NCBI GenBank assembly: GCA_964573995.1
Contig: CAZNLH010000002.1
Coordinates: forward strand, 25,060-89,059
DNA: 64,000 nt
Direction of reading: 5' to 3'
DNA from: an uncultured Gemmatimonadota bacterium
GTDB lineage: Bacteria; Gemmatimonadota; CAZMKB01; CAZNLH01
Both the position numbers and the translations under genes were made by a program. Positions 4,233 to 42,496 of the stretch are shown in pieces. The notes beneath the pieces are model-generated. The model saw only the letters and a list, made by a program, of their open reading frames with translations. It had not been told where the DNA came from and did no database searches. Positions within the stretch are counted from its first letter, which is position 1. Each line of letters begins with the position of its first letter.

Positions 4233-5009
4233 TCATTTGCCGTTTAATATCCGGATGACGGCATCGTGAATCAGCCCGTTTGTCGCGAGGATCTCGTCGC
4301 CGTAAATGCTGTAAGGCCCTCCTCGGAAGGTGGTGACCCTGCCTCCCGACTCCTCCACGATCAACTTGCCCGCCGCGGTGTCCCACGGCTGCAACTTGCG
4401 CTCGTAGAATCCGTCGCACCGGCCCGAAGCCACGTAGCAGAGGTCAAGGGCCGCCGATCCGTCCCTCCGGATGCCCTGGGTGTGCATCAGGATCCTCTCG
4501 AGTGTCTCCATGTATCCCTCATGATTCTCCTGGATATCGTAGGGGAAGCCTGTAGAAAGGAGCGAGGTGGACAGGTCAGCGTTGCGTGATGAATGGATCG
4601 GGACGCCGTTGAGCGTGGCTTCCGCCAGCAATTCGGCCCTGAAGAACTCCTCCCTCAAGGGATCGTAGACGACGCCGTAAATGACCTCCTCTTTTACCTG
4701 GAGGGCGACGCTGACGGCCACGAATGGATAGGCATGGGCGAAGTTAGTGGTGCCGTCGAGGGGATCGACCAGCCATAGGCGATCTGAGGTGCCTTCTCTT
4801 GTCCGGCCGCTCTCCTCGGCCAGGATCACATCACCCGGGAATGCGCGCTTGATGCCCCGCGTGATGATCTCCTCCGACCGGCGGTCGACCTCCGTCACGA
4901 GGTCGATCTTCCCCTTGAAATTTATGGTCACGTCCTTTTCAAACTTGCCCTTGATATAATTACCCGCTTCCCTTACAATCTCCTCGACGACGTGGTATTC
5001 ACGGGTCAT
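4233..5009 (-). CDS. suhB: inositol monophosphatase family protein (SuhB-like)
   Basis: IMPase motifs are present: WLVDPLDGTTNF, a DPLRE-like region, and a WDTAAG C-terminal motif. Confidence 0.8.
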   Translation of the reverse strand: MTREYHVVEEIVREAGNYIKGKFEKDVTINFKGKIDLVTEVDRRSEEIITRGIKRAFPGDVILAEESGRTREGTSDRLWLVDPLDGTTNFAHAYPFVAVSVALQVKEEVIYGVVYDPLREEFFRAELLAEATLNGVPIHSSRNADLSTSLLSTGFPYDIQENHEGYMETLERILMHTQGIRRDGSAALDLCYVASGRCDGFYERKLQPWDTAAGKLIVEESGGRVTTFRGGPYSIYGDEILATNGLIHDAVIRILNGK

Positions 5010-5083
5010 GTTGTGCCCTCTCCCCTTATCAAAGATCTTGTTCCACGTGGATTCCGGGCTGATAGGATATCCATTTCCAAGAT

Positions 5084-5111
5084 CGTGTCAAGTTCCACCT
5101 TACTTGACACG
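5084..5111. promoter_or_regulatory. perfect 10-bp inverted repeat (CGTGTCAAGT-N8-ACTTGACACG), candidate operator in a divergent promoter region
   Basis: Palindrome seen directly in the sequence. It lies between the divergently oriented suhB-like gene (minus) and the DUF5683-like gene (plus). The TTGACA inside its right arm could double as a -35 element. Confidence 0.3.
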
Positions 5112-5210
5112 TCCTATTCTCAAGGTTAATTTGCAGATGTGGAAAGCGTAGCATCTTTATGCCTGCGAAGCCCCATGGAATATCTGCTAAAATACAGGGG
5201 TTGACCCCGG

Positions 5211-5825
5211 GTGGGCGAAGGTAGAATTTCTCAACAGGAGCCACGGCGAACGAGGAGATTCAATACCGTTCACGGCCGTGCGCTATTTTTCACCTTAATC
5301 CTCTTCTCCTCCGCATTTCTATTTGCCGTAAAAAGCCCTGCGGCGGTAGATCCGGTTGGTGAATTCACGGAAGGTATCGTTACACCGGCCCAGGCAGCGG
5401 ACTCGATATCACCCGGCAAGGGCGCCGAAATTGAGGAAGTGGAGAAGTCCCCCCTCGGTGCGATGCTGAGATCAGCGGTAATTCCCGGCTGGGGGCAGTT
5501 CTACACCGATCATCCCTACCGTGGGGGCCTGATTTTCACCGCTGAGGGGATCCTGCTGTCCCTGGCCTGGGCGGAAAAGTCTCAGGCCGATCAGGATTGG
5601 GAGACATACAAGGAGACCTCACAGGCCGGTTACCTCGATGCCTATGATCGACACTTTAATCGGGCCAGGGACCTCTCGAGCCTGTCAATCGCCGTCTTCC
5701 TGGTCAACATCGCGGATGCTTACGTGAGCGCTCACCTCTATGGCTTCAACGGCAGGATACGATTCGATCAGGAGAGTCGTCGGTTGAACATCTCGTTGGC
5801 ATGGAAACGCCGGGTGGAGAAATAA
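5211..5825 (+). CDS. DUF5683-like secreted or membrane protein
   Basis: N-terminal hydrophobic signal segment and an SAVIPGWGQFY motif typical of the DUF5683 family. The start codon is uncertain. Confidence 0.5.
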   Translation: MGEGRISQQEPRRTRRFNTVHGRALFFTLILFSSAFLFAVKSPAAVDPVGEFTEGIVTPAQAADSISPGKGAEIEEVEKSPLGAMLRSAVIPGWGQFYTDHPYRGGLIFTAEGILLSLAWAEKSQADQDWETYKETSQAGYLDAYDRHFNRARDLSSLSIAVFLVNIADAYVSAHLYGFNGRIRFDQESRRLNISLAWKRRVEK

Positions 5826-5922
5826 TGTCGTTGGGTACGGCACCACTGTCGGATAGGCGATCGAACTCTCACTGTCGCTACGGGAGGGGTGGGTGTTGCG
5901 CATGCTCGGAGGTGAACCGTAA

Positions 5923-6396
5923 ATGAAGCACTCCTTGAGGACCGGCCTGAGTTTCGGCCTGACCTCCGGAATAATAACGACGTTGGGGCTGATAGTAGGG
6001 CTTCATTCGAGCACCCACTCCAATATCATAATAATAGGCGGGATCCTCGTCATCGCAATAGGAGATGCCCTGTCCGACGCGATGGGTATACACGTCTCGG
6101 AGGAATCGGAAGACAGGCACTCGGAGCGCGAGATCTGGGAATCCACGCTGGCCACGTTCCTCTCGAAGTTCCTATTTTCCATGACCTTCATCATACCCAT
6201 AGTAATGTTCCCCCTGGGCGTTGCGATACTGATTTGTGTGGTGTGGGGTCTTTCCCTGATCACGTTTTTCAGTCTCTACATGGCAAGGAGGCAGGGGGTG
6301 AGACCCCTGAGACCGGTATTGGAGCACCTCTTTATCGCTATAGTGGTCGTGGTAGTGACACACTATGTGGGAGATTGGGTGGAGACACTTGAATAG
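5923..6396 (+). CDS. VIT1/CCC1 family membrane protein (short form)
   Basis: Glycine-rich transmembrane helices (GLSFGLTSGIITTLGLIVG) and an acidic loop (SEESEDRHSERE), as in the transmembrane portion of VIT iron/manganese transporters. Confidence 0.55.
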   Translation: MKHSLRTGLSFGLTSGIITTLGLIVGLHSSTHSNIIIIGGILVIAIGDALSDAMGIHVSEESEDRHSEREIWESTLATFLSKFLFSMTFIIPIVMFPLGVAILICVVWGLSLITFFSLYMARRQGVRPLRPVLEHLFIAIVVVVVTHYVGDWVETLE

Positions 6397-6538
6397 ATCC
6401 CGCCCGGCCGGGCGTTGAGCCATCGCGGGGGGTGGTGTTGTGGAAGCGGTGGCCTGTAGGGGAGCGGGAATTTTCGGTGGAAGATGAATCTGCTCTGGCA
6501 CCGGGCATCAAGGGGGCGTCGCGTGGGAGGAGGTTGGA

Positions 6539-7093
6539 ATGGAAGAGGTTGAATTGCCCGTGGATAAGTGGTTGTGGCATATCGGTCTGATCCAGGGCAC
6601 AATTGTCCTGATCTCAACGTACGATGCATCCGGGCAACCCAACGTGGCGCCGAAGAGTTGGGTACAGATGGTCTCCTTCGAGCCAAGTGTACTGATGTTT
6701 TCCGGGAGCCGTGGTAACACGACGGAGAGGAACATCCTCGAAAAGGAGTGCTTCGGGGTAAATCTCGTGGACACTTCGATTGCGCCAAGGGCCTTTAGGT
6801 CTATTAAGTGGCATGGCTTGGAGCGAATTGAACGATCGGCGTTCGAACTGGTAAAGGCGTCTCGGATCGATGCCCCTCTGGTGAACGATTGTCCCGGCCA
6901 CCTTGAATGTCGACTGTGCCGGACTATCGAGGTGGGAAGGGGTCTCGTCATCTTCGGCGAGATTGTGAAGGTCTCGATACGTGAGGATATCGTAACCGCC
7001 TCCTTGAGGGATCGGTACAGGCTGCTCGACCCGGCGCTTTATCTGGAGGAGGGGACGTTCGCCTCCCTGAAGGCTACCTTTTCTGTCGATTGA
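6539..7093 (+). CDS. flavin reductase-like domain protein (FMN-binding split barrel)
   Basis: About 180 aa with the fold pattern of the Flavin_Reduct family (ISTYDASGQPNVAPKSW ... GHLECRL ... FGEIV). Confidence 0.6.
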   Translation: MEEVELPVDKWLWHIGLIQGTIVLISTYDASGQPNVAPKSWVQMVSFEPSVLMFSGSRGNTTERNILEKECFGVNLVDTSIAPRAFRSIKWHGLERIERSAFELVKASRIDAPLVNDCPGHLECRLCRTIEVGRGLVIFGEIVKVSIREDIVTASLRDRYRLLDPALYLEEGTFASLKATFSVD

Positions 7094-7332
7094 TCCGTGC
7101 AAACCATGTTTGAACCGTCTTAGGGTATAACCCGGGATGATGGCGGCTCAGGGGTGACATGGATGATCATTGTATGATCGGGATGGTATATGGAGGTTTG
7201 GGTGCCTCTATACCGGCAGGAACCGGGAAGTGGGATGGATGTAATCGCTGTCCCCGGCTGATGGAATCGGTCCTTGGAAGGCGACACGCTTCGAGACTGT
7301 CGTCAAGGTCCGGGTCAGAATGGAGGTGAACG

Positions 7333-8001
7333 ATGAAGGCAGGAAGATTGAAGGTGCTCGCGCTGACCGTTGCGGTCGGGGCTTGCCTGTACGGGCTGTT
7401 CCTGCTCAGCGATTCTGAAGACGTGCAAAGGGACGATGCGTATTCTGGAGTTGATATCCCGCCATCGACCGACCTCGAGGCACTGCCACCTGTCCTTCGA
7501 CGTCGAGCCTCACGCAAGGCGGATGATGAAGGTGAAAAGGGGGTGGATAGAGAGAAGGGTGTCAGTTCCCCGATAGAACTCGAACTGGAGATCATCTCAA
7601 AGAACAAACTCCAGGGAGACAATGCCGGAGGGGAAGTAACCGTAGGAGCCAGGCTTCGGCCCCTGGTCGACTCACCTGACATTCGATGGTTCGTGAAGGT
7701 CCCGGAAGGCCTGTCATTGATCGGAGGACCGGCCTCCTGGGAAGGAAAGATGGAAGAGGGTGAAGAGAGGACGTTTCAATTGACCTTTTCAGTGCCGGAC
7801 GGGAAGGCGTATGAATTGTACAGCCGTGCCGAGTCGTACCTGGGAAATGGAGATGTCGTGACCAAGGGGGCCGGCCTGCGGATCGACCTCGGCCCCAGGG
7901 AATTGGGCGATTATCCACCCTTTGAGCGGGTCGACAGTGAGGGGAGGCGTGTGATCAGTTACAAGGGAAAAGTGAATGGGTCGAGCGCCGGGGGGGATTA
8001 A
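7333..8001 (+). CDS. hypothetical secreted protein
   Basis: N-terminal signal peptide (LKVLALTVAVGACLYGLFLL), then an acidic low-complexity linker and a Gly-rich C-terminus. No family recognised. Confidence 0.45.
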   Translation: MKAGRLKVLALTVAVGACLYGLFLLSDSEDVQRDDAYSGVDIPPSTDLEALPPVLRRRASRKADDEGEKGVDREKGVSSPIELELEIISKNKLQGDNAGGEVTVGARLRPLVDSPDIRWFVKVPEGLSLIGGPASWEGKMEEGEERTFQLTFSVPDGKAYELYSRAESYLGNGDVVTKGAGLRIDLGPRELGDYPPFERVDSEGRRVISYKGKVNGSSAGGD

Positions 8002-9068: not shown

Positions 9069-9261
9069 AATATCAAGCAAGGTCTCGCCGGCGTTACTGC
9101 AAGCCGGCATAACGCTCCCACGGCCATCTTAAGATATAATCGGTCTGGAGAAAGGGCAACCTTGTCGGAGTATTGACTCCGCCCTGATTTTTTGATAGTT
9201 TTTGACCTCTTTCGTTAATTCGATCCATTGAATGGGGCATTGAAAGGTGGAGCGTGGAGAA

Positions 9262-10269
9262 ATGGCTGAATCCAGCAGGGTGTGGGTGCTTCGTAACGAT
9301 CGGGTGGAATCGGTTCACCGGATATCCGCCGCGGTGGTTGACGGATCGGGCGATCTCGCCTTCTCGACAGGGGACCCCCAATTGCGCACGTACTTTAGAT
9401 CTTCGGCCAAGTTGTTACAGGCCATACCGTTCATTGAATCGGCAGGAGATGAGGTCTTCGGCCTGACCCCCGGCGAGGTGGCAGTGATCGCATCATCTCA
9501 CAATGGAGAGAAGATGCACACCGATGCCGTGTATTCCATCCTGTCGAAGATCGGGTTGAAGGAAGAGGACCTCTTCTGTGGCCCGCACGAGCCCATCAAC
9601 CCGGCGGCGGCCGAGGCACTGCGGGCCGCGGGGAGAAAACCGACCTCCGTGCACAACAATTGCTCCGGCAAGCACGCCGGGATCCTCGCGCTCTGCGTTC
9701 TGAACGGGTGGCCGGTCAAGGGGTACCAACTGGCCGGGCACAGGGCCCAGGAGCGCATATTCGGCGTAATCGCCGAGGCCACCGACCAGCGGGTCTCTTC
9801 CATTGAATATGGCACTGACGGATGTGGAATACCGACCTTTTACCTCTCGATAACGCAGATGGCCCTGGCCTACAGCAGGCTCATGGCGTGGGCGAAGCAG
9901 GGTGGAGAAAGGGGAAGGGCGGTCGAGAAGATCATCGGGGCAATAAGGGAGGAGCCATTGATGCTCGACGGGACCGGCGGGTTTTCCACCGACCTGGCGA
10001 AGGCTACATCCGGACGGATCATCGGTAAGGTTGGCGCCGAGGGGCTCTTTTGCATCGGTGTGCCTCGAGAAGGCCTGGGGATAGCGATCAAGGTGGAAGA
10101 TGGAAACCGCCGGGCGACTTCCGCGGCCGCCGTGGAGACGCTGAAGGCATTGGGACTCCTCGCGGAAGGTGAACTGGAGTCCCTCTCGCGGCACCACAGG
10201 CCCGTGATCGCCAATCACCAGGGCGCGATTGTCGGCAATCTGTCACCGGAAATTCACTTTAAGGGGTGA
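9262..10269 (+). CDS. asparaginase II family protein (PF06089-like)
   Basis: Conserved blocks of the asparaginase_II family (SSHNGE, NNCSGKHAG, GTDGCG). An AGGTGGAG ribosome-binding site precedes the ATG at 9262; the six-frame track starts at 9247. Confidence 0.75.
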   Translation: MAESSRVWVLRNDRVESVHRISAAVVDGSGDLAFSTGDPQLRTYFRSSAKLLQAIPFIESAGDEVFGLTPGEVAVIASSHNGEKMHTDAVYSILSKIGLKEEDLFCGPHEPINPAAAEALRAAGRKPTSVHNNCSGKHAGILALCVLNGWPVKGYQLAGHRAQERIFGVIAEATDQRVSSIEYGTDGCGIPTFYLSITQMALAYSRLMAWAKQGGERGRAVEKIIGAIREEPLMLDGTGGFSTDLAKATSGRIIGKVGAEGLFCIGVPREGLGIAIKVEDGNRRATSAAAVETLKALGLLAEGELESLSRHHRPVIANHQGAIVGNLSPEIHFKG

Positions 10270-14322: not shown

Positions 14323-15597
14323 TCAAGGCAGGACACTGATCGCGGAGGGATATACGAAGCCTCCCACGCTTCCCAGTATGTCTCCATCCTTCGACACCTT
14401 TATCACCCTGCCTTCCATCGAGGTTGCGGCCGCCAGCCAGCACGAGCCCTCCACGGGGTCGACTGCCAGGTCGCTGATGAATTCGAAACCTGGTACGTCC
14501 AGGTCGGTAGTGAATGAGGGCCCTACGCGCGTGATGGTCCAGGTCTCGGCGTAATGGGCGATCCAGCAGGAGCCGTCGCCGGTATTTACGGCCACCTTCA
14601 CGGGCGGTGGCTGGATGTCTCCCAGTGCGAAAAGAGTCCCTCCATCCTTGCTCAATATGGTTACCCCGTTGTCATCGGCGATCCAGCACCGACCGTAGAC
14701 AGGGTCCGCGGATAGCGACACGGGGTTGCTGAAACCGCCTATTGCCGTGAAGTCCTCCTCGCCCGGGCCCTTCCTGTAGACTGTCCCCTCCCCGCGGGAT
14801 GCCACCCACACCGTCCCGTCGCCCTGATCGATGTCTATATCGATCGGGTCCGAAATGTAGGGAAAAAAGGCCAGTTCGTTCCCCGAATCGTCGACCTGGG
14901 AAACACCACCGGGAGACCTGTAGCCGATCCAGAGCGTATGGTCGGAGGCGCGCACGCCGAGGGTGACCGGGAGTCCCCTGCCGGCGCCCGAGTTGCTGTG
15001 CTCGAGCAGAAAGTCTCCGTCGATCCCGTATTTTATGACGCGCCTGCCGAAGTAATCCGCCACCCAGATGGATTGTCCGTCCGGTGAGATCTCCACGTCC
15101 ATGGGGCCCGAGAGACCCGTTACGCGTGTCAAGCGGTCGCGGGCGTCTGGGGTGATCCTCCACAGGGCGGGGGAGTCGAGGTCGACCGTCCAGGCCGTCG
15201 TTGGGCCCGGCGTAGCGACGTCAGAGGCCGAATAATAGCGCTCTGAGTGTGGCGCCAGGAACCGGAGGATATAGGTGTACGTGTGGGAGTTAAGGACATC
15301 GGCATCCGTCCAGGTAGTATCTTCAGGTGGAATCCGGGACTGGTTCAGGGTCGTCGTTTCCGGCGAGTCGCCCTCGAGTCTCAACAAGTCGTATCCCACC
15401 AGGTCGTGAAGGTCGAGGTCGTTCCATGCCAGCCTTACCTCCTCGTCTCCGGCGAGCGCATTTAGGTTGTCAGGCGTTCCACCGGTGGAGGGGTTCATCG
15501 GGTCGAGTGGATTGATGTGGTCTCTCCCCTTGCACCCCTCAGTGAGGAGCAGGGTGCAACAGGAGAGCAGAATGGTAACTGTGGCCCTGTATATCAT
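14323..15597 (-). CDS. lipoprotein with a fibronectin-III-like domain and NHL/beta-propeller repeats
   Basis: Start at MIYRATVTILLSCCTLLLTEGC (signal plus Cys), with an ATGA overlap onto the upstream gene stop. Repeated propeller-like blocks (WVADYFG, WIADDNG, CWIAHY, CWLAAAT). The six-frame ORF extends to 15756, but the internal Met fits the operon coupling. Confidence 0.55.
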   Translation of the reverse strand: MIYRATVTILLSCCTLLLTEGCKGRDHINPLDPMNPSTGGTPDNLNALAGDEEVRLAWNDLDLHDLVGYDLLRLEGDSPETTTLNQSRIPPEDTTWTDADVLNSHTYTYILRFLAPHSERYYSASDVATPGPTTAWTVDLDSPALWRITPDARDRLTRVTGLSGPMDVEISPDGQSIWVADYFGRRVIKYGIDGDFLLEHSNSGAGRGLPVTLGVRASDHTLWIGYRSPGGVSQVDDSGNELAFFPYISDPIDIDIDQGDGTVWVASRGEGTVYRKGPGEEDFTAIGGFSNPVSLSADPVYGRCWIADDNGVTILSKDGGTLFALGDIQPPPVKVAVNTGDGSCWIAHYAETWTITRVGPSFTTDLDVPGFEFISDLAVDPVEGSCWLAAATSMEGRVIKVSKDGDILGSVGGFVYPSAISVLP

Positions 15598-16499
15598 CGT
15601 CTGACAGTATCTCCAAAGTACCACGTGATGATCAGGGGGCTTTCTCCCGATCGTCCAAGTTTCAGGGCGGGGGGTGGCCTCTTCCCCTGATCGCCCCGCA
15701 AGTTCCTGAAAAAGAGGAAAATCGTGGCGCCCAGGGCCACCTGGCCGCTTACCCAAAGTATTCGGGCCCGGTTGTCCATCCGCTCCGCGCCGTTGAACAG
15801 GCGGTTCATATCATCCCTGGATGAGGTGTGCCGGTAATCGTCGAACAGGTCGTCGGCGCGCTCCTTGGTGTAAAATCCGAGTGCAGTGGCGCCGATAAAG
15901 TATGACAATGTGGCGTATGGTAACCAGCCGGGGGACACGCCGGGCCTCTGGTCTTTCCCTGTAGCGGCAACCTCCGGTGTGAGGTTCGAGCCGGCGGGTT
16001 CGAGAGACAGGTTGAGCAGGGGCACCTGGAGTCGGGGATCGTCAAGGCGGAAGGTCAACCTGCGGTATCCGATCTTGGCTACGCTCAAGGTGGAATCTAT
16101 GCCGCGGATGATGCTCAGTGCCAGCGGAGATCGCCCGGCCGGATGGCCGTTCAGGAATATTTCACTTGCTTCGGGCACAGTTGTAACCTGCAGGGGCCTG
16201 ACGTCTCCCTGCCGGATGACCAGGGATTCATCCTCCGCCAGCACGAAGGGACACGATTGCACGGGAGGCAACCATCGACCATCCCGGTCGGGCGGAAGCA
16301 GGGTCATGTAATGAAGGCCTGCTTGCACGGTGAGTGTGGCCGAGTCATTCACCCCCTTCGTTTCATTGTCGATAATGAGCACCGCTCCGGGATAATCCAG
16401 GCGGATCACGGCCGTTTTCTCGGCGAAAGCGGGGGAGATTCGAAAGGCCGGCCAAAGGGGAATCGTCGTGGCCAGTAGCGTGATCGTTGTCTTGCTCAC
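15594..16499 (-). CDS. PEGA-domain secreted or membrane protein
   Basis: Signal peptide; two PEGA-like segments (AVIRLDYPGAVLIIDNETKG and TTVPEASEIFLNGHPAGRSPL); a C-terminal transmembrane segment. It overlaps both neighbouring genes by 4 bp. Confidence 0.5.
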   Translation of the reverse strand: MSKTTITLLATTIPLWPAFRISPAFAEKTAVIRLDYPGAVLIIDNETKGVNDSATLTVQAGLHYMTLLPPDRDGRWLPPVQSCPFVLAEDESLVIRQGDVRPLQVTTVPEASEIFLNGHPAGRSPLALSIIRGIDSTLSVAKIGYRRLTFRLDDPRLQVPLLNLSLEPAGSNLTPEVAATGKDQRPGVSPGWLPYATLSYFIGATALGFYTKERADDLFDDYRHTSSRDDMNRLFNGAERMDNRARILWVSGQVALGATIFLFFRNLRGDQGKRPPPALKLGRSGESPLIITWYFGDTVRR

Positions 16500-17719
16500 C
16501 GTGCTCCACCCGTTCTGTCCAGGTCGTCTTCGGCTGCAAAGGCGATCAATTCACCCCTTCCGGTTGTAATGAATAGCCGCCTTCCCGATATGGCCGGAGC
16601 GGCGTACAATGGCGCGGCAACGGTCTCCTTCCACAACAATTCGCCGCTCCCGACGTCCACCATCACGATTTCACCGGCCAGCGATAAGATGATCACCGCC
16701 TTGCCGGAGGTTACTGGTGCCGCCTCGAGGAGACCGGAAGTCGTCCGCCTCCAAAGTAATTTGCCTGAGTGAGGGCCCCATGCGAATGCCGCACGGATGC
16801 CGTCCGTTCCGAGGATGGTATCTCCTGAAATGGACAATTTATAGGTCCTTGGTGCATTGGATACCTCCATGCGCCCTTCCGGGTGCCGTAGCGTGATGAG
16901 GCCGATCCCCCCCGCCCATCCATAAAACAGGCAACCGTCCATGGCAGCGGTGGAGGGAAAGGAATTCGGCGATATGGCCCTGTGATTGATAATTTTTCCG
17001 TCGATCGTTGATAGCACGTCCATCGTATCTTTCGAGGCGACTATGAACAGGGAGTCCCCAATGATGATGGGAGACTGCGGCACCATCGCCCTGAGTTGTC
17101 TCTTCCACAGGAGTTCCCCCCTGGTGATTGTATGGGCGAAGAGGGTGCCTTCATCAGACAGTGTGTATATGATTCCGGCATCTATAGTCGGAGTCGATCG
17201 GCTCGGGCCGATCTTCCTGTTCCAGATCTCTTCTCCCCTCCTGATATCTATCGCGTAGAGTGAGCCGTCGGGATATTCAGTGGTGACAAAGATTCTACCG
17301 CTTGAAACGACGGGGTCTCCGTAACATCCCCCCCCGATCTTGGTCTGCCATAGTTTTTTTCCATCCCTGGCAAGGTAGGCCTTCACCATTCCATCGGTAG
17401 TGGCGGCAATAACTATGGCGCCGACGGGGACGGGTGATCCCTTGAATCCACGCCCAGCCTTTGTCCTCCATGCCTCTATCAGGGGAGGCGAAAGTTCCGC
17501 ATGGATCGATCCACTCCTTTCGAAATCACCCCCCGCCGTCCGCCATTCTCCAATGTAGCCGGTCTCGTCTATCAGGCGGGCTCCACAGCCTGTGAATACG
17601 ATCAAGAGTGAGACAAGGATGAAGAGAAGGTTGCTCGGGGGGACGGATTGCAATTTCAATCCCTCTTGTTTCGGCCGCTTATACCCTATCGTTAAAGGTC
17701 GTGAATGATCCGATTCCAC
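16496..17719 (-). CDS. PQQ-like beta-propeller repeat lipoprotein (BamB-like)
   Basis: Lipobox LLIVFTGC. Repeated beta-propeller blades with the BamB/PQQ pattern (IFVTTEYPDGSLYAIDIRRGEEIW, IYTLSDEGTLFAHTITRGELLW, ILSLAGEIVMVDVGSGELLW). Confidence 0.55.
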   Translation of the reverse strand: MESDHSRPLTIGYKRPKQEGLKLQSVPPSNLLFILVSLLIVFTGCGARLIDETGYIGEWRTAGGDFERSGSIHAELSPPLIEAWRTKAGRGFKGSPVPVGAIVIAATTDGMVKAYLARDGKKLWQTKIGGGCYGDPVVSSGRIFVTTEYPDGSLYAIDIRRGEEIWNRKIGPSRSTPTIDAGIIYTLSDEGTLFAHTITRGELLWKRQLRAMVPQSPIIIGDSLFIVASKDTMDVLSTIDGKIINHRAISPNSFPSTAAMDGCLFYGWAGGIGLITLRHPEGRMEVSNAPRTYKLSISGDTILGTDGIRAAFAWGPHSGKLLWRRTTSGLLEAAPVTSGKAVIILSLAGEIVMVDVGSGELLWKETVAAPLYAAPAISGRRLFITTGRGELIAFAAEDDLDRTGGAR

Positions 17720-20528: not shown

Positions 20529-21545
20529 CTATTCGCTGTTGGGCGGGTTTCCAATGGTCACGCGCTGGTTTCCTATGTGACCGACGCCCCAGATCATGAA
20601 GTCCCCACCGTAATCCGATCCCGCATTCCCCCAGACATCGTCGATCCGCGTGAACATCTGGTCCGGGTGGTTGACCTCCGCATCGACCCCCTGTCCCTCG
20701 CAGGTCGGGTAGTCCGTCAACTGGTCGTTGGCGATGTAGAAGGCCGAACTGATCGGTATGCCGGGATAGGCCACGGCGTGGCTCGTCCCGGGGGTCACCT
20801 GCGATACATCGCTGAAGAGGAGTGTACCGGGCAGGCCCCCTGACCCATCGTTGTCGAAGACTTGAAGCAGGATATCCTGGTGGATATCGTCGGGCCAGGG
20901 CCAGCCGGGGTCGCCCTCGGAGAGGATATAAACCCCGATCGAGTCGAGGACGGAACCATCGGGCAGGCAACCACGAATTGCCCAGGCGTTGCAGAGGTGT
21001 GACCAAGCCCAGGCGTTTGCCATTACGCCGTCATCCCAGCGGACCTCGATCTCGTCCCTGCTGTTCAGATCGAACTGGAAGAAATCGGCGAGTTGGCCGT
21101 CGATGAACAACTTGGCCGTGTAGCGGCCATAGACTTCCAGATTCCACGGCACGAGATCGCTGTATTTGCGGTAAGTCTCCTCGCCGCCCTGAAGCACGAT
21201 TTCATTTTGGAAGAGCGACCGCCGCGATCCGTCAGGGAAGTCAAGGCGAATTTGGACATCACCGCTGTCCTCGGCTTCGTCCTCGTTCCAGAGTTTGATG
21301 TTGAAGGTGAGTTGTTCACCGGGGACCACCTCAAAGGGAACCGTCCGTTCGATCGAGCCGCGGATGCTTTGATGGTCCATTGTAAAATTCCCGAGGTCGC
21401 CGGCCGAGTGGCCGCCGGTGAGAGGGACCGCTGACAGGGCAGGGTTGTCTATTTCATTGGCCATAAAAGAGATGGCGGCGGTGGGAGTCAGGATCCATGG
21501 TATTAAGGAGAGAGGAAAAAGGGTGAGCAAGAACCTGGTCGACAT
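20529..21545 (-). CDS. secreted protein of unknown family, paralog A
   Basis: Signal peptide from MSTRFLLTLFPLSLIPWIL. It shares long conserved blocks with 21823-22794 (YGRYTAKLFIDG, FDLNSR-EIEVRWDDGV, WAIRGCLPDG, WPWPD, PTCEGQGVD). The six-frame ORF runs to 21596. Confidence 0.55.
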   Translation of the reverse strand: MSTRFLLTLFPLSLIPWILTPTAAISFMANEIDNPALSAVPLTGGHSAGDLGNFTMDHQSIRGSIERTVPFEVVPGEQLTFNIKLWNEDEAEDSGDVQIRLDFPDGSRRSLFQNEIVLQGGEETYRKYSDLVPWNLEVYGRYTAKLFIDGQLADFFQFDLNSRDEIEVRWDDGVMANAWAWSHLCNAWAIRGCLPDGSVLDSIGVYILSEGDPGWPWPDDIHQDILLQVFDNDGSGGLPGTLLFSDVSQVTPGTSHAVAYPGIPISSAFYIANDQLTDYPTCEGQGVDAEVNHPDQMFTRIDDVWGNAGSDYGGDFMIWGVGHIGNQRVTIGNPPNSE

Positions 21546-21704
21546 GGCGTTCTCCTTTTTACAGGCTTGCACCTGAAGGGGTGTGAAGGACAGCAAAGAA
21601 ATTATAGATGAAATATCATGTTATTTAAATAATACAACTATCTGTAACTTCACGCAAGGGAAAATTATTGCCGTACAGCAAAGCCCGGATTTTACGGTAT
21701 GAGC

Positions 21705-21749
21705 GCCAAAAAGAAAGATGGTGGGAGAACATCCTGTTATCCCACCATC
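21705..21749 (-). terminator. rho-independent terminator downstream of paralog B
   Basis: A 9-bp stem (GATGGTGGG / CCCACCATC) with a 15-nt loop, followed on the minus strand by TCTTTCTTTTT. Confidence 0.5.
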
Positions 21750-21822
21750 TTTTCTCCTGCTTGTCGCGAGAACCCTGCTCAACATGTTTGGTGGAGCAAG
21801 ATTCTCAAGCCTTGTATTGTGG

Positions 21823-22794
21823 TTACTGCTGAGCAGGCGGATTTCCGACTGTGACGTTCTGCCCTGCAACGGAAGCAATGGCCCAGATCATCAGGTCTCC
21901 TGAGATCGATGAATAAGGTTGCCATGCGCCGCTGATCTCGGCCCACATCTGGTCGTAGTGGTTCAAGGCACCATCGACGCCCTGTCCCTCGCATGTCGGA
22001 TATGGATCCAACTGGTTGTTGGCCACGAAGAAGGCAGATGTGGTGATCGGTACGCTCACGGTCGCAATCGCATCTCCACTTGCACCGCCGTTGGCGATGT
22101 TATCGGAGAGCAGTGTACCAGGGTATCCACCACCGCCCGTGTTGTCATAGAGTTGGACACCGATGTCCTGGTGGACGGCGTCCGGCCACGGCCAGTAAGG
22201 ATCGTTCTCAGAAAGGACATGAACGCCTATCTCGTTGACTACGGCCCCGTCTGGCAGGCAGCCACGGATCGCCCACTTGTTGCCGGCGTCGTACCAGGCG
22301 TAAGCATTTACCAGTACTCCATCGTCCCAACGGACCTCGATATCCGTCCGGCTGTTCAGGTCGAACTGGCAAAAACTGGCCAGGACCCCATCGATGAAGA
22401 GTTTCAGGGTGTAACGTCCATAGAGTTGGAGATTGTCGGGGACATATTCAGAGTAAGGGTACGTGATACTCTGCAGGCCCTCGAGCGTTACGTTCTCTTC
22501 CATCATGGGAACCTGTGCACCGTTAGGGCAGTCGAGGCGCAAGAGGACGTCGGCACTGTTCTGCTCCTGATCGGTGTTCGTCAGGGTGATGTCCGCGGTG
22601 AAATTCTCACCCGGGATGATCTCGAACTCGATCGTACGTTCAATGTGTCCCTTGATCGGACCCTGAATTGTGACTTCACCATAGTTGACCTGATTTCCTA
22701 TGGGCAGGTTTGCAGCTGAGGCTGTTGTGGCGTAAAGCTGGACGTTCACCAGGAAAAACGCCGCGGCAGCAACAGCAAAGACCTTCCTTGTCAT
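21823..22794 (-). CDS. secreted protein of unknown family, paralog B
   Basis: Sec signal peptide (AVAAAAFFLVNVQLYATTASA). It is collinear with 20529-21545 over its whole length; by eye roughly 45-50% identity. Confidence 0.55.
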   Translation of the reverse strand: MTRKVFAVAAAAFFLVNVQLYATTASAANLPIGNQVNYGEVTIQGPIKGHIERTIEFEIIPGENFTADITLTNTDQEQNSADVLLRLDCPNGAQVPMMEENVTLEGLQSITYPYSEYVPDNLQLYGRYTLKLFIDGVLASFCQFDLNSRTDIEVRWDDGVLVNAYAWYDAGNKWAIRGCLPDGAVVNEIGVHVLSENDPYWPWPDAVHQDIGVQLYDNTGGGGYPGTLLSDNIANGGASGDAIATVSVPITTSAFFVANNQLDPYPTCEGQGVDGALNHYDQMWAEISGAWQPYSSISGDLMIWAIASVAGQNVTVGNPPAQQ

Positions 22795-23259
22795 GACACC
22801 TCCTTGGTTGTTAGGATTTCTCCTTGGAAGATGACGGAAAAGTGCTATGAAGGACCCGTAAGGACCTTCACAAGAAAATCAGTCCCTTCAACCTCCTTTC
22901 CATAGTGTAACTCGAAATGGACTTTCTTTGTGCTTGAATATCCATTGGCGATGCACACGTTATCCTTTTGCCTGTAACAAGGCGTTTACCTCTAATGTCA
23001 CACTCTATCATATCTGTGGGGGGGCGTCTGTAAGGCTGCTTACAGTTATTGCCCTTTTTTCTCTTTCGACCTTGAATCATGACTTAATCGGACAAGGTTG
23101 ATTCTTGGAGAAAAACAAGGCAATCTCCCATTAATGATTTATCTTGACCATTGTTCTGGATGAATTAAACTATAATTAAGGACCTCGTCCGGGAAAACGG
23201 CATTTTCTTTCAGTAGTTGATATGATTACAGTCAAAGCGATGGGGAGGTGAGACAGGTT

Positions 23260-24445: not shown

Positions 24446-24477
24446 TTTTTAATGGTTGGGGGTATATATTAACAGTC

Positions 24478-24508
24478 GAGTGGGAAGGCCCCCACTCTTT
24501 ATTTTTGT
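24478..24508 (+). terminator. rho-independent terminator after pgeF
   Basis: GAGTGGG-aaggcc-CCCACTC stem-loop followed by TTTATTTTTG. Confidence 0.55.
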
Positions 24509-24591
24509 GAAGTATGGTCTATAGCGTATGAAATGGTCAGAAAATAGGCGAACAATCACATTCGGATTCAGTTCCGGGAGATCCGCGTGTC

Positions 24592-30838: not shown

Positions 30839-30910
30839 GCCTTTACAAAGGTGAATTTTCGTTTTAAATTGTAGACTCGTTTGGCGCGATGAATCGAAGG
30901 AGAGTCGACG

Positions 30911-31180
30911 ATGGCACTTGATAAAGAGACGAAAAAGGATGTGATCGACAGGTTCAAACTCCATGATAATGATTCGGGGTCCGCCGAAGTCCAGATTGCA
31001 TTGTTGACTCGTCGGATAGAGTCATTGACCAAGCACTTTCAGGTGCATAATAAAGATCACCACTCAAGGAAGGGGTTGTTGAGACTTGTTGGACAGCGAA
31101 GGAAACTCTTGGATTATCTCAAAAAGAGCAATATTAACAGTTATCATCACCTGCTCAGGGAACTGAACCTGAGAAAATAG
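30911..31180 (+). CDS. rpsO: 30S ribosomal protein S15
   Basis: 89 aa with S15 signatures ([28 protein letters not shown]). AAGGAGAG ribosome-binding site. Confidence 0.9.
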
Positions 31181-31226
31181 GTTGTCTCAAGCGCCCTGTA
31201 GGGGCAGTATGGGAGTCAGTAAAAAA

Positions 31227-42243: not shown

Positions 42244-42374
42244 GGTAATAATTTTTTCTTGACAAAGGATTCAACATCCCGTACCCTATATAGTGCACGA
42301 CACCATATATTGAGTGTCGACCGTGAACGGAAGATCCGGGTGGTATTATGGGGTGTTTATCACAATCAAGATAC

Positions 42375-42403
42375 TTGACTTGATGAATAAAATGGTGTAT
42401 AAT
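42375..42403 (+). promoter_or_regulatory. near-consensus sigma70-type promoter: TTGACT, 17-nt spacer, TATAAT
   Basis: TTGACT at 42375-42380, a 17-nt spacer, and TATAAT at 42398-42403. It lies about 95 nt upstream of the regulator gene, in an AT-rich intergenic region. Confidence 0.4.
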
Positions 42404-42496
42404 GATATAAATTACGCCGTATTGTTTCATATCTGCCCCAGAAAGAACAAATGTTCCGCAATATTGACCGGTTTTTGAACTAGCGGGGAATGTCAG

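Follow-up and report, generated by a model that had tools for sequence, protein, structure and literature searches.

Tandem genes for putatively exported jelly-roll proteins, an ancient duplication in an uncultured Gemmatimonadota bacterium

The DNA considered here, referred to below as the window, is a stretch of 64,000 nucleotides (nt) from an uncultured Gemmatimonadota bacterium. It carries two adjacent genes on its minus strand, A and B, which encode small proteins of an all-beta, two-domain design. An earlier note, written from the sequence alone, had taken them for recently duplicated and diversifying secreted proteins of an unrecognised family, set in unusually AT-rich DNA. In this report we describe the pair, its relatives and its flanking DNA, and weigh the functions that these proteins may have.

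The gene pair and its predicted domains

The features of the two genes, all on the minus strand, are as follows.

21823..22794, minus: gene B, 323 residues, with signal peptide, linker, immunoglobulin (Ig)-like domain, jelly-roll and GNPP tail (open reading frame and translation)
22714..22794, minus: predicted signal peptide of B, about residues 1-27, MTRKVFAVAAAAFFLVNVQLYATTASA followed by AN (read from the sequence; a segment of low predicted local distance difference test, pLDDT)
22357..22656, minus: Ig-like beta-sandwich of B, about residues 47-146 (AlphaFold2 strands and Foldseek matches)
21865..22347, minus: predicted jelly-roll of B, about residues 150-310 (conserved family core; domain-only AlphaFold2 model, Foldseek and profile matches)
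21826-21864, minus: GNPP tail of B, residues 311-323 (family alignment)
20529..21545, minus: gene A, 338 residues, a putatively exported paralog with B-like architecture (open reading frame)
21066..21365, minus: Ig-like domain of A, about residues 61-160 (collinear alignment with B)
20571..21056, minus: predicted jelly-roll of A, about residues 164-325 (collinear alignment with B; included in domain alignment A2)
20532-20570, minus: GNPP tail of A (family alignment)

Gene B starts with an ATG behind the Shine-Dalgarno (SD) sequence AAGGAGG (CCAAGGAGGTGTC), and its product is 100% identical to database protein P0001; gene A starts with an ATG behind AAGGAG (AAAAAGGAGAACGCC) and its product is identical to P0013 (P0xxx denotes matched database proteins and L0xx the loci compared with the window). 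The mechanical open reading frame of A opens at a TTG at 21596, 17 codons before this ATG (window 21546-21596), and gives 355 residues. This longer form would bury the signal peptide and is probably wrong; the ATG has a good SD, and on the source contig JGI calls genes of 323 and 338 residues. The two products are collinear, with 147 of 279 aligned residues identical (53%, E 2e-108, BLASTP), and the alignment contains all the identity blocks quoted in the earlier note, so that its description of tandem minus-strand paralogs with shared blocks holds.

Both N-termini, read by eye together with 30 aligned relatives, have the organisation of Sec substrates cleaved by signal peptidase I (SPase I), namely an n-region, a hydrophobic core of 15-18 residues and a small-x-small site, and this layout is common to all 30 relatives (alignment A1). 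In B the sequence MTRK is followed by 18 hydrophobic residues and TASA, with the cut before AN, and the (T/V)ASA site and the three-part layout are kept across the B-type orthologs. In A, MSTR is followed by FLLTLFPLSLIPWIL and TPTAAIS, with the cut before F or alternatively between TAA and I. There is no Cys within the first 40 residues of either protein, which speaks against lipoprotein processing by SPase II, and Pfam and NCBIfam searches at E<=1 detect in neither protein the C-terminal sorting domain, of about 70-80 residues, of the type IX secretion system (T9SS; Por_Secre_tail or TIGR04183). Both proteins are probably Sec substrates, as the earlier note had also read from the sequence, with SPase I as the likely processing enzyme. 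They stop 10-15 residues past the jelly-roll, at GNPPxx. A conserved tail of the form (V/I)T(V/I)GNPPxx-COOH, apparently disordered (pLDDT about 30), ends nearly all family members and is missing in P0009, P0015, P0017 and P0031; no transmembrane segment or known sorting motif comes after it, and it could be an interaction or sorting peptide.

Neither A nor B matches any Pfam or NCBIfam model at E<=1, and B has no match among PDB sequences, which leaves the family as unrecognised as it was first described. Searching PDB sequences with the profiles of the single domains returned nothing significant (best matches galectin, E 1.2, for the jelly-roll and WxLIP, E 0.19, for the Ig domain). A word-indexed search with the domain profile found 15 proteins, none of them named, and the literature on the WPWPD motif yielded nothing relevant. 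The AlphaFold2 model of B, built on a 32-sequence family alignment, is all-beta with two domains and a mean pLDDT of 79.5; confidence is low for the signal peptide, for the linker and over the 12 residues at the C-terminal end. When the whole model was compared with the PDB by Foldseek, only generic tandem-sandwich proteins were found (RbmA, transglutaminase C-terminal barrels, arrestin/VPS26; TM-score, TMq, <= 0.29). Within these results the N-terminal domain gave matches of about 115 columns, at a root-mean-square deviation (rmsd) of 2.5-5 A, to Ig/fn3-like domains such as the AlkC Ig-like and GH3 fn3-like domains, and it is on these matches and the AlphaFold2 strands that we call this domain Ig-like.

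As the whole model gave generic matches only, the jelly-roll was modelled again by itself on an alignment of 34 diverse copies, and AlphaFold2 then returned a pLDDT of 92.8 and a predicted TM-score (pTM) of 0.88. Its PDB neighbours by Foldseek are all accessory or binding jelly-rolls, and the similarity is weak:

Phage phi812 baseplate protein: E 8e-5, TMq 0.50
Cwp84 lectin-like domain: E 1.9e-3, TMq 0.58
PBCV-1 minor capsid protein: E 4.8e-3, TMq 0.59

Lower-scoring matches include a mycobacteriophage fibre, the Eph ligand-binding domain, a SUN domain, a carbohydrate-binding module (CBM) of family CBM4 and the C-domain of subtilisin KP-43. On this model the A/B jelly-roll would have the fold of the lectin/CBM-like class, at a weak TMq of up to 0.59. 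No hidden Markov model (HMM) of the curated CBM, lectin and adhesin families, PF07675 included, matches over the conserved core.

Relatives of the pair, age of the duplication and selection

The family to which A and B belong is small, with 31 members at E<=1e-3 among 5.8 billion clustered proteins. None of these 31 has an informative name or a Pfam domain, and cluster look-ups gave no names. A-type and B-type sequences co-occur on the same contigs, where they form part of a conserved block that reads truB-rbfA-DUF503-infB-nusA-Cu_oxidase_4-phasin-like-(lipoprotein)-B-A and continues after A with DUF72-asnS-PQQ propeller-PEGA-NHL-tricorn-like peptidase. The block recurs in metagenome-assembled genomes (MAGs) at NCBI, in a JGI contig and in several assemblies that Logan made independently from read sets, and B plus A also occurs in ENA contigs; this excludes an artefact of assembly and places the pair in the core genome of the lineage.

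At the same locus, B plus A is found in L002-L006 and L020, and B, B and A stand in tandem in L011 (6919-10440). Copy number varies further elsewhere: L022 (1737-4238) has two B-type genes of B length, no gene of A length and no DUF72 gene; in L021 (130-2207) B lies directly 5' of DUF72; and the MAG that holds L006 and L007 has an extra single copy at another place (L007 1786-5617), divergent to a gene for a gingipain-type Peptidase_C25.

In a neighbour-joining tree A and B fall into separate clades, and the same genomes contribute orthologs to both. The duplication must therefore have preceded the split of lineages between which B orthologs now share only about 52% identity. Substitution rates at nonsynonymous (dN) and synonymous (dS) sites were estimated by the Nei-Gojobori method; a single close ortholog was available for B, whereas A had none:

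B against its closest ortholog (L010): amino acid identity 86%, dN 0.088, dS 0.85, dN/dS 0.10
The same, jelly-roll only: 88%, dN 0.064, dS 0.96, dN/dS 0.07
The same, Ig-like domain only: 86%, dN 0.110, dS 0.75, dN/dS 0.15
A against B in the window: 49%, dN 0.448, dS 1.73 (proportion of synonymous differences, pS, 0.68, near saturation), dN/dS not reliable
B1 against B2 of L011, a recent duplicate: 89%, dN 0.080, dS 0.30, dN/dS 0.27

The duplication is ancient and the selection is purifying. The earlier note had suggested the opposite on both counts: its "recent duplication" is contradicted by the 53% identity, the pS of 0.68 and the separate clades with syntenic orthologs, and its "diversifying" by the dN/dS of 0.10 overall and 0.07 over the jelly-roll.

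The jelly-roll itself is distributed far more widely than the pair. An exhaustive HMM search of the family profile against 1.84 billion cluster representatives found 383 at E<=1e-3, of which 122 reach E<=1e-10. The small two-domain form accounts for only about six of the 383, and nearly all the others match profile positions of about 155-315 only, in one to three copies and in proteins of up to 3867 residues. The module is accompanied in distant homologs by S8 peptidase, NIDO, fn3, CARDB, CBM9-like and CarboxypepD_reg domains, and a T9SS type A sorting domain is present in 10 of the 16 distant homologs that were scanned. Neither in A and B nor in any of these 16 is the jelly-roll covered by a Pfam or NCBIfam model.

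The closest true relatives are modules in T9SS cargo proteins of uncultured bacteria of the Fibrobacteres-Chlorobi-Bacteroidetes (FCB) type, such as WOR-3 and Zixibacteria, which are genuine homologs: identities by tblastn are 32-44%, E-values with the profile go down to 1e-80, and the motifs DDG, WPWPD, GxPG, CEGxGxD and GDxMI are shared. Whereas these cargo proteins have 500-3900 residues, are multidomain and are mostly T9SS-tailed, A and B have 320-340 residues with only a Sec signal and the GNPP tail. A 977-residue WOR-3 protein is built of a glutaminyl-cyclase-like propeller, CARDB, the module, a further CARDB, an unnamed region and a T9SS tail, and this architecture of about 980 residues is recurrent (L008 3910-9746; L015 and L018, about 4770-7746); in L008 an S8 peptidase gene comes directly before the module-bearing gene. 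The cassette of an Ig-like domain followed by the jelly-roll is kept as a unit in the WOR-3 protein, P0055, P0073 and P0083, as it is in A and B. A 2858-residue S8 peptidase of Zixibacteria RBG_16_53_22 (L009) has two copies of the module together with NIDO, fn3 and a T9SS tail, and in proteins of about 690 residues from the Ga0180437/8 metagenomes (L016/L017, about 5700-7770) the module follows directly after the signal peptide. One homolog, P0037, has a weak, sub-threshold CBM9-like match beside its module.

Conservation was counted over 141 distant modules in 125 proteins, in the numbering of B. The well-kept positions are D157 (89%), D158 (84%), G159 (87%), W203 (89%), P204 (95%), G223 (91%), P225 (100%), G226 (79%), F255 (94%), D274 (97%), W291 (93%), D300 (72%) and M302 (93%). 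Poorly kept are Cys179 (0%, Thr being commonest), His208 (54%), Cys268 (44%) and Glu269 (52%). It follows that "Cys-containing module", the expression of the earlier note, does not describe the domain at large, Cys179 being specific to the small family. No nucleophile or base of the kind that a Cys/His hydrolase would need is conserved in these 141 modules; given this and the Asp/Trp/Pro/Gly pattern, it is most economical to see in the jelly-roll a binding or structural module that has no catalytic role and is probably stabilised by metal.

Among characterised proteins, the closest analogues are Cwp84-type jelly-rolls and, for the N-terminal domain, CARDB/NEW3 spacers, in both cases at the level of the fold only. 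The lectin-like domain of Clostridioides difficile Cwp84 (PDB 4d59; PMC4089489, PMC4356305) is, like that of A and B, a jelly-roll of about 160 residues, and is among the two matches with the highest TM-scores. It binds Ca, is non-catalytic and is only putatively carbohydrate-binding. It shares 12% identity with A/B at an rmsd of 5.1 A, with no relation at the sequence level, and it belongs to an S-layer protein of a Gram-positive bacterium in which a C1A cysteine peptidase is its fusion partner, whereas A and B are free-standing. CBM4 (1gui), the Eph ligand-binding domain and the phage jelly-rolls 9euj_G and 8zdp_v share the fold class of A and B, typical of extracellular accessory binding, but at a TMq of 0.33-0.50 only, and no CBM or lectin Pfam model matches.

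The N-terminal domain resembles CARDB and NEW3 (NPCBM_assoc) domains in size, strand pattern and position, and CARDB directly precedes the jelly-roll in the WOR-3 protein; positions 64-135 of the family profile weakly match repeats in NEW3/CARDB-rich proteins. The Pfam models CARDB PF07705 and NPCBM_assoc PF10633, however, do not match A/B at E<=1, and hhalign of the domain against five bona fide CARDB segments gave a probability of 16%. The modelled domain, with its seven strands, would have a CARDB/NEW3-type Ig-like fold, while membership of that family is unproven. The cleaved-adhesin domains of gingipains (PF07675) are adhesin modules with a jelly-roll fold, found within the same superphylum in peptidases that the T9SS secretes. 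A copy of the A/B family lies beside a C25 peptidase gene, but the PF07675 model matches neither A, B nor the 16 homologs, and neither Kgp nor HagA is among the top 50 Foldseek matches.

Flanking DNA, transcription units and the leader of gene B

The noncoding features on the minus strand around the two genes are the following.

21708..21752, minus: intrinsic terminator of B, stem AAAGAUGGUGGGA / UCCCACCAUCUUU, then CUUUUU
21601..21629, minus: promoter-like site for A, TTTAAA-17-TATAAT, 10/12 (sigma-70-like consensus scan)
23007..23044, minus: palindrome TGTAAG-N4-CTTACA (23029-23044) and overlapping -35/-10-like promoter, about 210-250 nt upstream of B (promoter scan)
22795..22900, minus: conserved part of the B leader (alignments A3, A5, A6 and folds)
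22883-22900, minus: pseudo-SD box GAAAGGAGGTTGAAGGGA, about 100 nt downstream of the palindrome block
22849-22869, minus: leader hairpin (alignment and folds)
22826-22842, minus: leader pyrimidine tract (alignment)
22798-22804, minus: true SD of B (alignment)

The intergenic regions 21597-21822 and 22795-23247 have GC contents of 0.41 and 0.42 against 0.55 for the window, and the AT-richness reported earlier is in that sense real. It is not unusual, since other promoter-bearing intergenic regions of the window lie at 0.39 (42244-42496), 0.43 (24446-24591 and 30839-31181) and 0.44-0.45; the AT-rich flanks have the look of ordinary promoter and terminator DNA. The genes themselves are typical of the window, with GC of 0.58 and 0.56 and GC at third codon positions (GC3) of 0.74 and 0.66; the remaining 52 crude gene calls span 0.48-0.61 in GC and 0.53-0.77 in GC3, and this comparison removes the hint of foreign origin that had been drawn from the flanks. 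There are no tRNA genes and no Rfam matches in the window, and the borders of the pair are free of mobile-element genes, of tRNAs and of repeats. A genomic island or recent horizontal acquisition was rejected in view of the native GC and GC3, the lack of tRNAs and the presence of the pair at the same locus in relatives.

Gene B does have its own terminator, as had been noticed: a 13-bp stem with one internal mismatch followed by UUUCUUUUU, with a folding energy (dG) of -28.8 kcal/mol and a z-score of -5.05, none of 200 shuffles being as stable. It was overlooked by the consensus scan because of its long loop. The TTTAAA-17-TATAAT site, which may be the promoter of A, is not kept in the alignment with L002 and L006. 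From the terminator of B and the sigma-70-like site upstream of A, we regard the two genes as separate transcription units. No convincing terminator was seen between A and the downstream DUF72 gene.

The leader of B is conserved in several parts. The palindrome is perfect and occurs once in the window without mismatch (0.04 matches expected at <=1 mismatch); its 3' arm is the -35-like hexamer CTTACA, with TATGAT 16 nt on, and it sits in a block conserved between the window and its relatives (alignment A3), a single copy being found at the same relative place in L002-L006, L011, L020 and L023. The pseudo-SD box is invariant, GAAAGGAGGT(G)NNNGGGA (GAAAGGAGGTG...GGGA), and unique in the window and in nine loci. 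The stem of the leader hairpin covaries, and a U-tract follows it, as in a terminator, in five lineages but not in the window. Next to the start codon is a nearly invariant segment GTCTTGACAAC-CAAGGAGGTGTC-ATG, in which UCUU is able to pair with the true SD. Leaders of this B type were located at 22795-23050 of the window (minus), L002 7719-8000, L006 7728-8000, L011 6705-6918, L020 5720-6000, L022 1407-1736 and L023 1406-1735.

When nine leaders were folded together with RNAalifold, support was limited to the small hairpin and to a helix of 4 bp occluding the SD. A helix between the pseudo-SD and the pyrimidine tract appears in single-sequence folds of L011, L020 and L023 and not in that of the window; a conserved riboswitch-like structure is not claimed, because this helix is present only in some lineages and the consensus fold is limited. 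The leader has no Rfam match even at E<=10, and an exact-pattern metagenome scan for the promoter block was empty. Judged from these sequence patterns, the leader may be a gene-specific regulatory element that combines an operator with an attenuator or an SD-sequestration switch.

In relatives, a divergent gene of about 300 residues stands beside B (L002 6574-7473, L006 6628-7656, L011 5652-6542, L022 423-1322). Its products in L002 and L006, the two that were translated, have a lipobox (TSCG) and no Pfam match. The idea that the AT-rich 453-nt region of the window (22795-23247) is a remnant of this lipoprotein gene was discarded, as tblastn found no trace of it there; the sole weak match lies elsewhere in the window (9144-9263, E 0.007).

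Beyond asnS lies an exported-looking cluster with PQQ-type beta-propeller, PEGA-domain and NHL-repeat proteins (window 14323-17719; L002 12892-16975), next to which a tricorn-like/Peptidase_MA_2 protein is encoded in relatives. From the PQQ propeller onward the genes are conserved among the relatives; the gene calls of the window differ there, two open reading frames having no Pfam match. We found no evidence for a functional link of this cluster to A and B.

Proposed function and competing explanations

Our preferred reading, in which we place moderate confidence, is that A and B, the products of an ancient duplication, are binding proteins without catalytic activity that leave the cytoplasm by Sec and belong to the cell envelope or the exterior. 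The mature protein would consist of a flexible linker, an Ig-like spacer, the jelly-roll of about 160 residues and the GNPP tail, and would represent a free-standing version of the T9SS cargo module that has no sorting domain. By its conserved acidic and aromatic surface the jelly-roll may bind a polymer or a partner, either glycan or protein. The residues DDG 157-159, WPWPD 201-205, GxPG 223-226, F255, D274, W291 and GDxM 299-302 could form a metal-stabilised ligand-binding core, by analogy with lectin and CBM jelly-rolls. Because both paralogs are retained side by side under purifying selection they are presumably non-redundant, perhaps through different ligands or as partners in a heteromer. 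We infer the binding function, the metal site, the ligand and the final location from the fold, the conservation and the relatives described above. A lectin-like or adhesin-like role, as the earlier note proposed, is compatible with the jelly-roll fold and its domain partners; the toxin-like role that was named along with it finds no support.

Several points weigh against this reading. Similarity to solved structures is weak (E 8e-5 to 1e-2, TM-scores of 0.5-0.6), and the jelly-roll to which the model belongs is a very common fold with many functions. The "lectin-like" domain of Cwp84 is itself only putatively carbohydrate-binding (PMC4089489). As A and B have no T9SS sorting domain, they may be retained in the periplasm instead of reaching the surface. 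Finally, Cys179, His208, Glu269 and several Asp residues are nearly invariant within the small family, and an activity specific to that family is possible.

The last point leads to the idea of a novel enzyme, with Cys179, His208, Asp205/Asp274 and Glu269 as an active site on the beta-sandwich. In 32 close members each of them is either invariant or kept at 90% or more, and dN/dS is lowest over the jelly-roll; yet the distant modules never keep Cys179 and keep His208, Cys268 and Glu269 in about half of the cases, the two Cys are individually replaced even in the close members P0028, P0004 and P0009, there is no sequence match to any enzyme family, and the structural matches are all non-catalytic domains, so that we regard an enzyme as quite improbable. 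An accessory role to peptidases is rather unlikely, with more in its favour: the jelly-roll would serve in substrate positioning, prodomain handling or stabilisation, in the manner of the Cwp84 lectin-like domain or of subtilisin P/C-domains, and the free-standing A and B would assist secreted peptidases in trans. The two modules in the Zixibacteria S8 peptidase, the WOR-3 module gene directly behind an S8 peptidase gene, the third family copy divergent to a C25 peptidase gene, the peptidase-attached jelly-rolls of Cwp84 and KP-43 among the fold matches and the tricorn-like peptidase at the edge of the syntenic block all point that way. Against it, most of the scanned module-bearing proteins have no peptidase domain, the direct neighbours of the pair in the window and in syntenic relatives are housekeeping genes (DUF72, asnS, phasin-like, nusA), and the fold matches on which part of the case depends are weak.

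A structural or matrix scaffold in the manner of RbmA, polymerising or cross-linking without a specific external ligand, seems to us unlikely. The top whole-model Foldseek match is indeed Vibrio cholerae RbmA, a biofilm scaffold of tandem fn3 domains (E 1.6e-6), but with a TMq of 0.28 and an rmsd of 13 A it says only "two beta-sandwiches". Core-genome genes in stable paired copies under purifying selection, and a disordered, conserved GNPP tail that could mediate assembly, would suit a scaffold, although the second domain is a jelly-roll and not fn3, and no repeat or polymerisation signature is seen. The original picture of a recent, diversifying and possibly horizontally acquired surface or toxin-like module in AT-rich foreign DNA has in its favour the tandem layout, the AT-rich flanks and the variation in copy number (three in L011, B and a second B-type gene in L022, the extra copy in the L006/L007 MAG). 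We consider it very improbable, and for this locus refuted by composition, dN/dS and tree, in the face of the divergence of the copies, whose synonymous sites are saturated and which fall into A and B clades of orthologs, a dN/dS of only 0.27 even for the sole recent duplicate pair, the synteny in a housekeeping block across independent assemblies, and native GC and GC3 with equally AT-rich regions elsewhere and no mobile-element genes. That the pair arose from a collapsed or duplicated contig, for which nothing but the tandem layout speaks, is practically negligible as an explanation: the copies are too divergent, and B plus A recurs in the NCBI, Logan, JGI and ENA assemblies. Of the two findings that by the earlier note would have refuted its reading, neither was obtained: the pair recurs in these assemblies, and no HMM of a characterised family matches.

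A bolder form of the binding interpretation would make the jelly-roll the founding member of a new ligand-recognition family, in wide use among the T9SS cargo proteins and the peptidases that uncultured phyla of the FCB type encode, and with a role outside the CBM, lectin and adhesin classes, would make A and B a heteromeric receptor, and would make the B leader, with its operator palindrome, pseudo-SD box, hairpin/attenuator and anti-SD-like tract, a new cis-regulatory element. That all of this should be true jointly is unlikely. We prefer to regard the domain as a new sequence family within a well-known kind, that of secreted beta-sandwich binding modules.

In other respects A and B are an ordinary conserved "hypothetical" gene pair that challenges no current idea. 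They nevertheless bring to view a confidently folding domain of about 160 residues, present in several hundred protein clusters, that has no counterpart in Pfam, NCBIfam or the PDB. Most of its carriers are giant proteins that candidate phyla (WOR-3, Zixibacteria and relatives) secrete through the T9SS. As its smallest natural carriers, 320-340 residues long and soluble-looking, A and B offer a practical entry to the structure of the domain, to a ligand screen and to the curation of the family.

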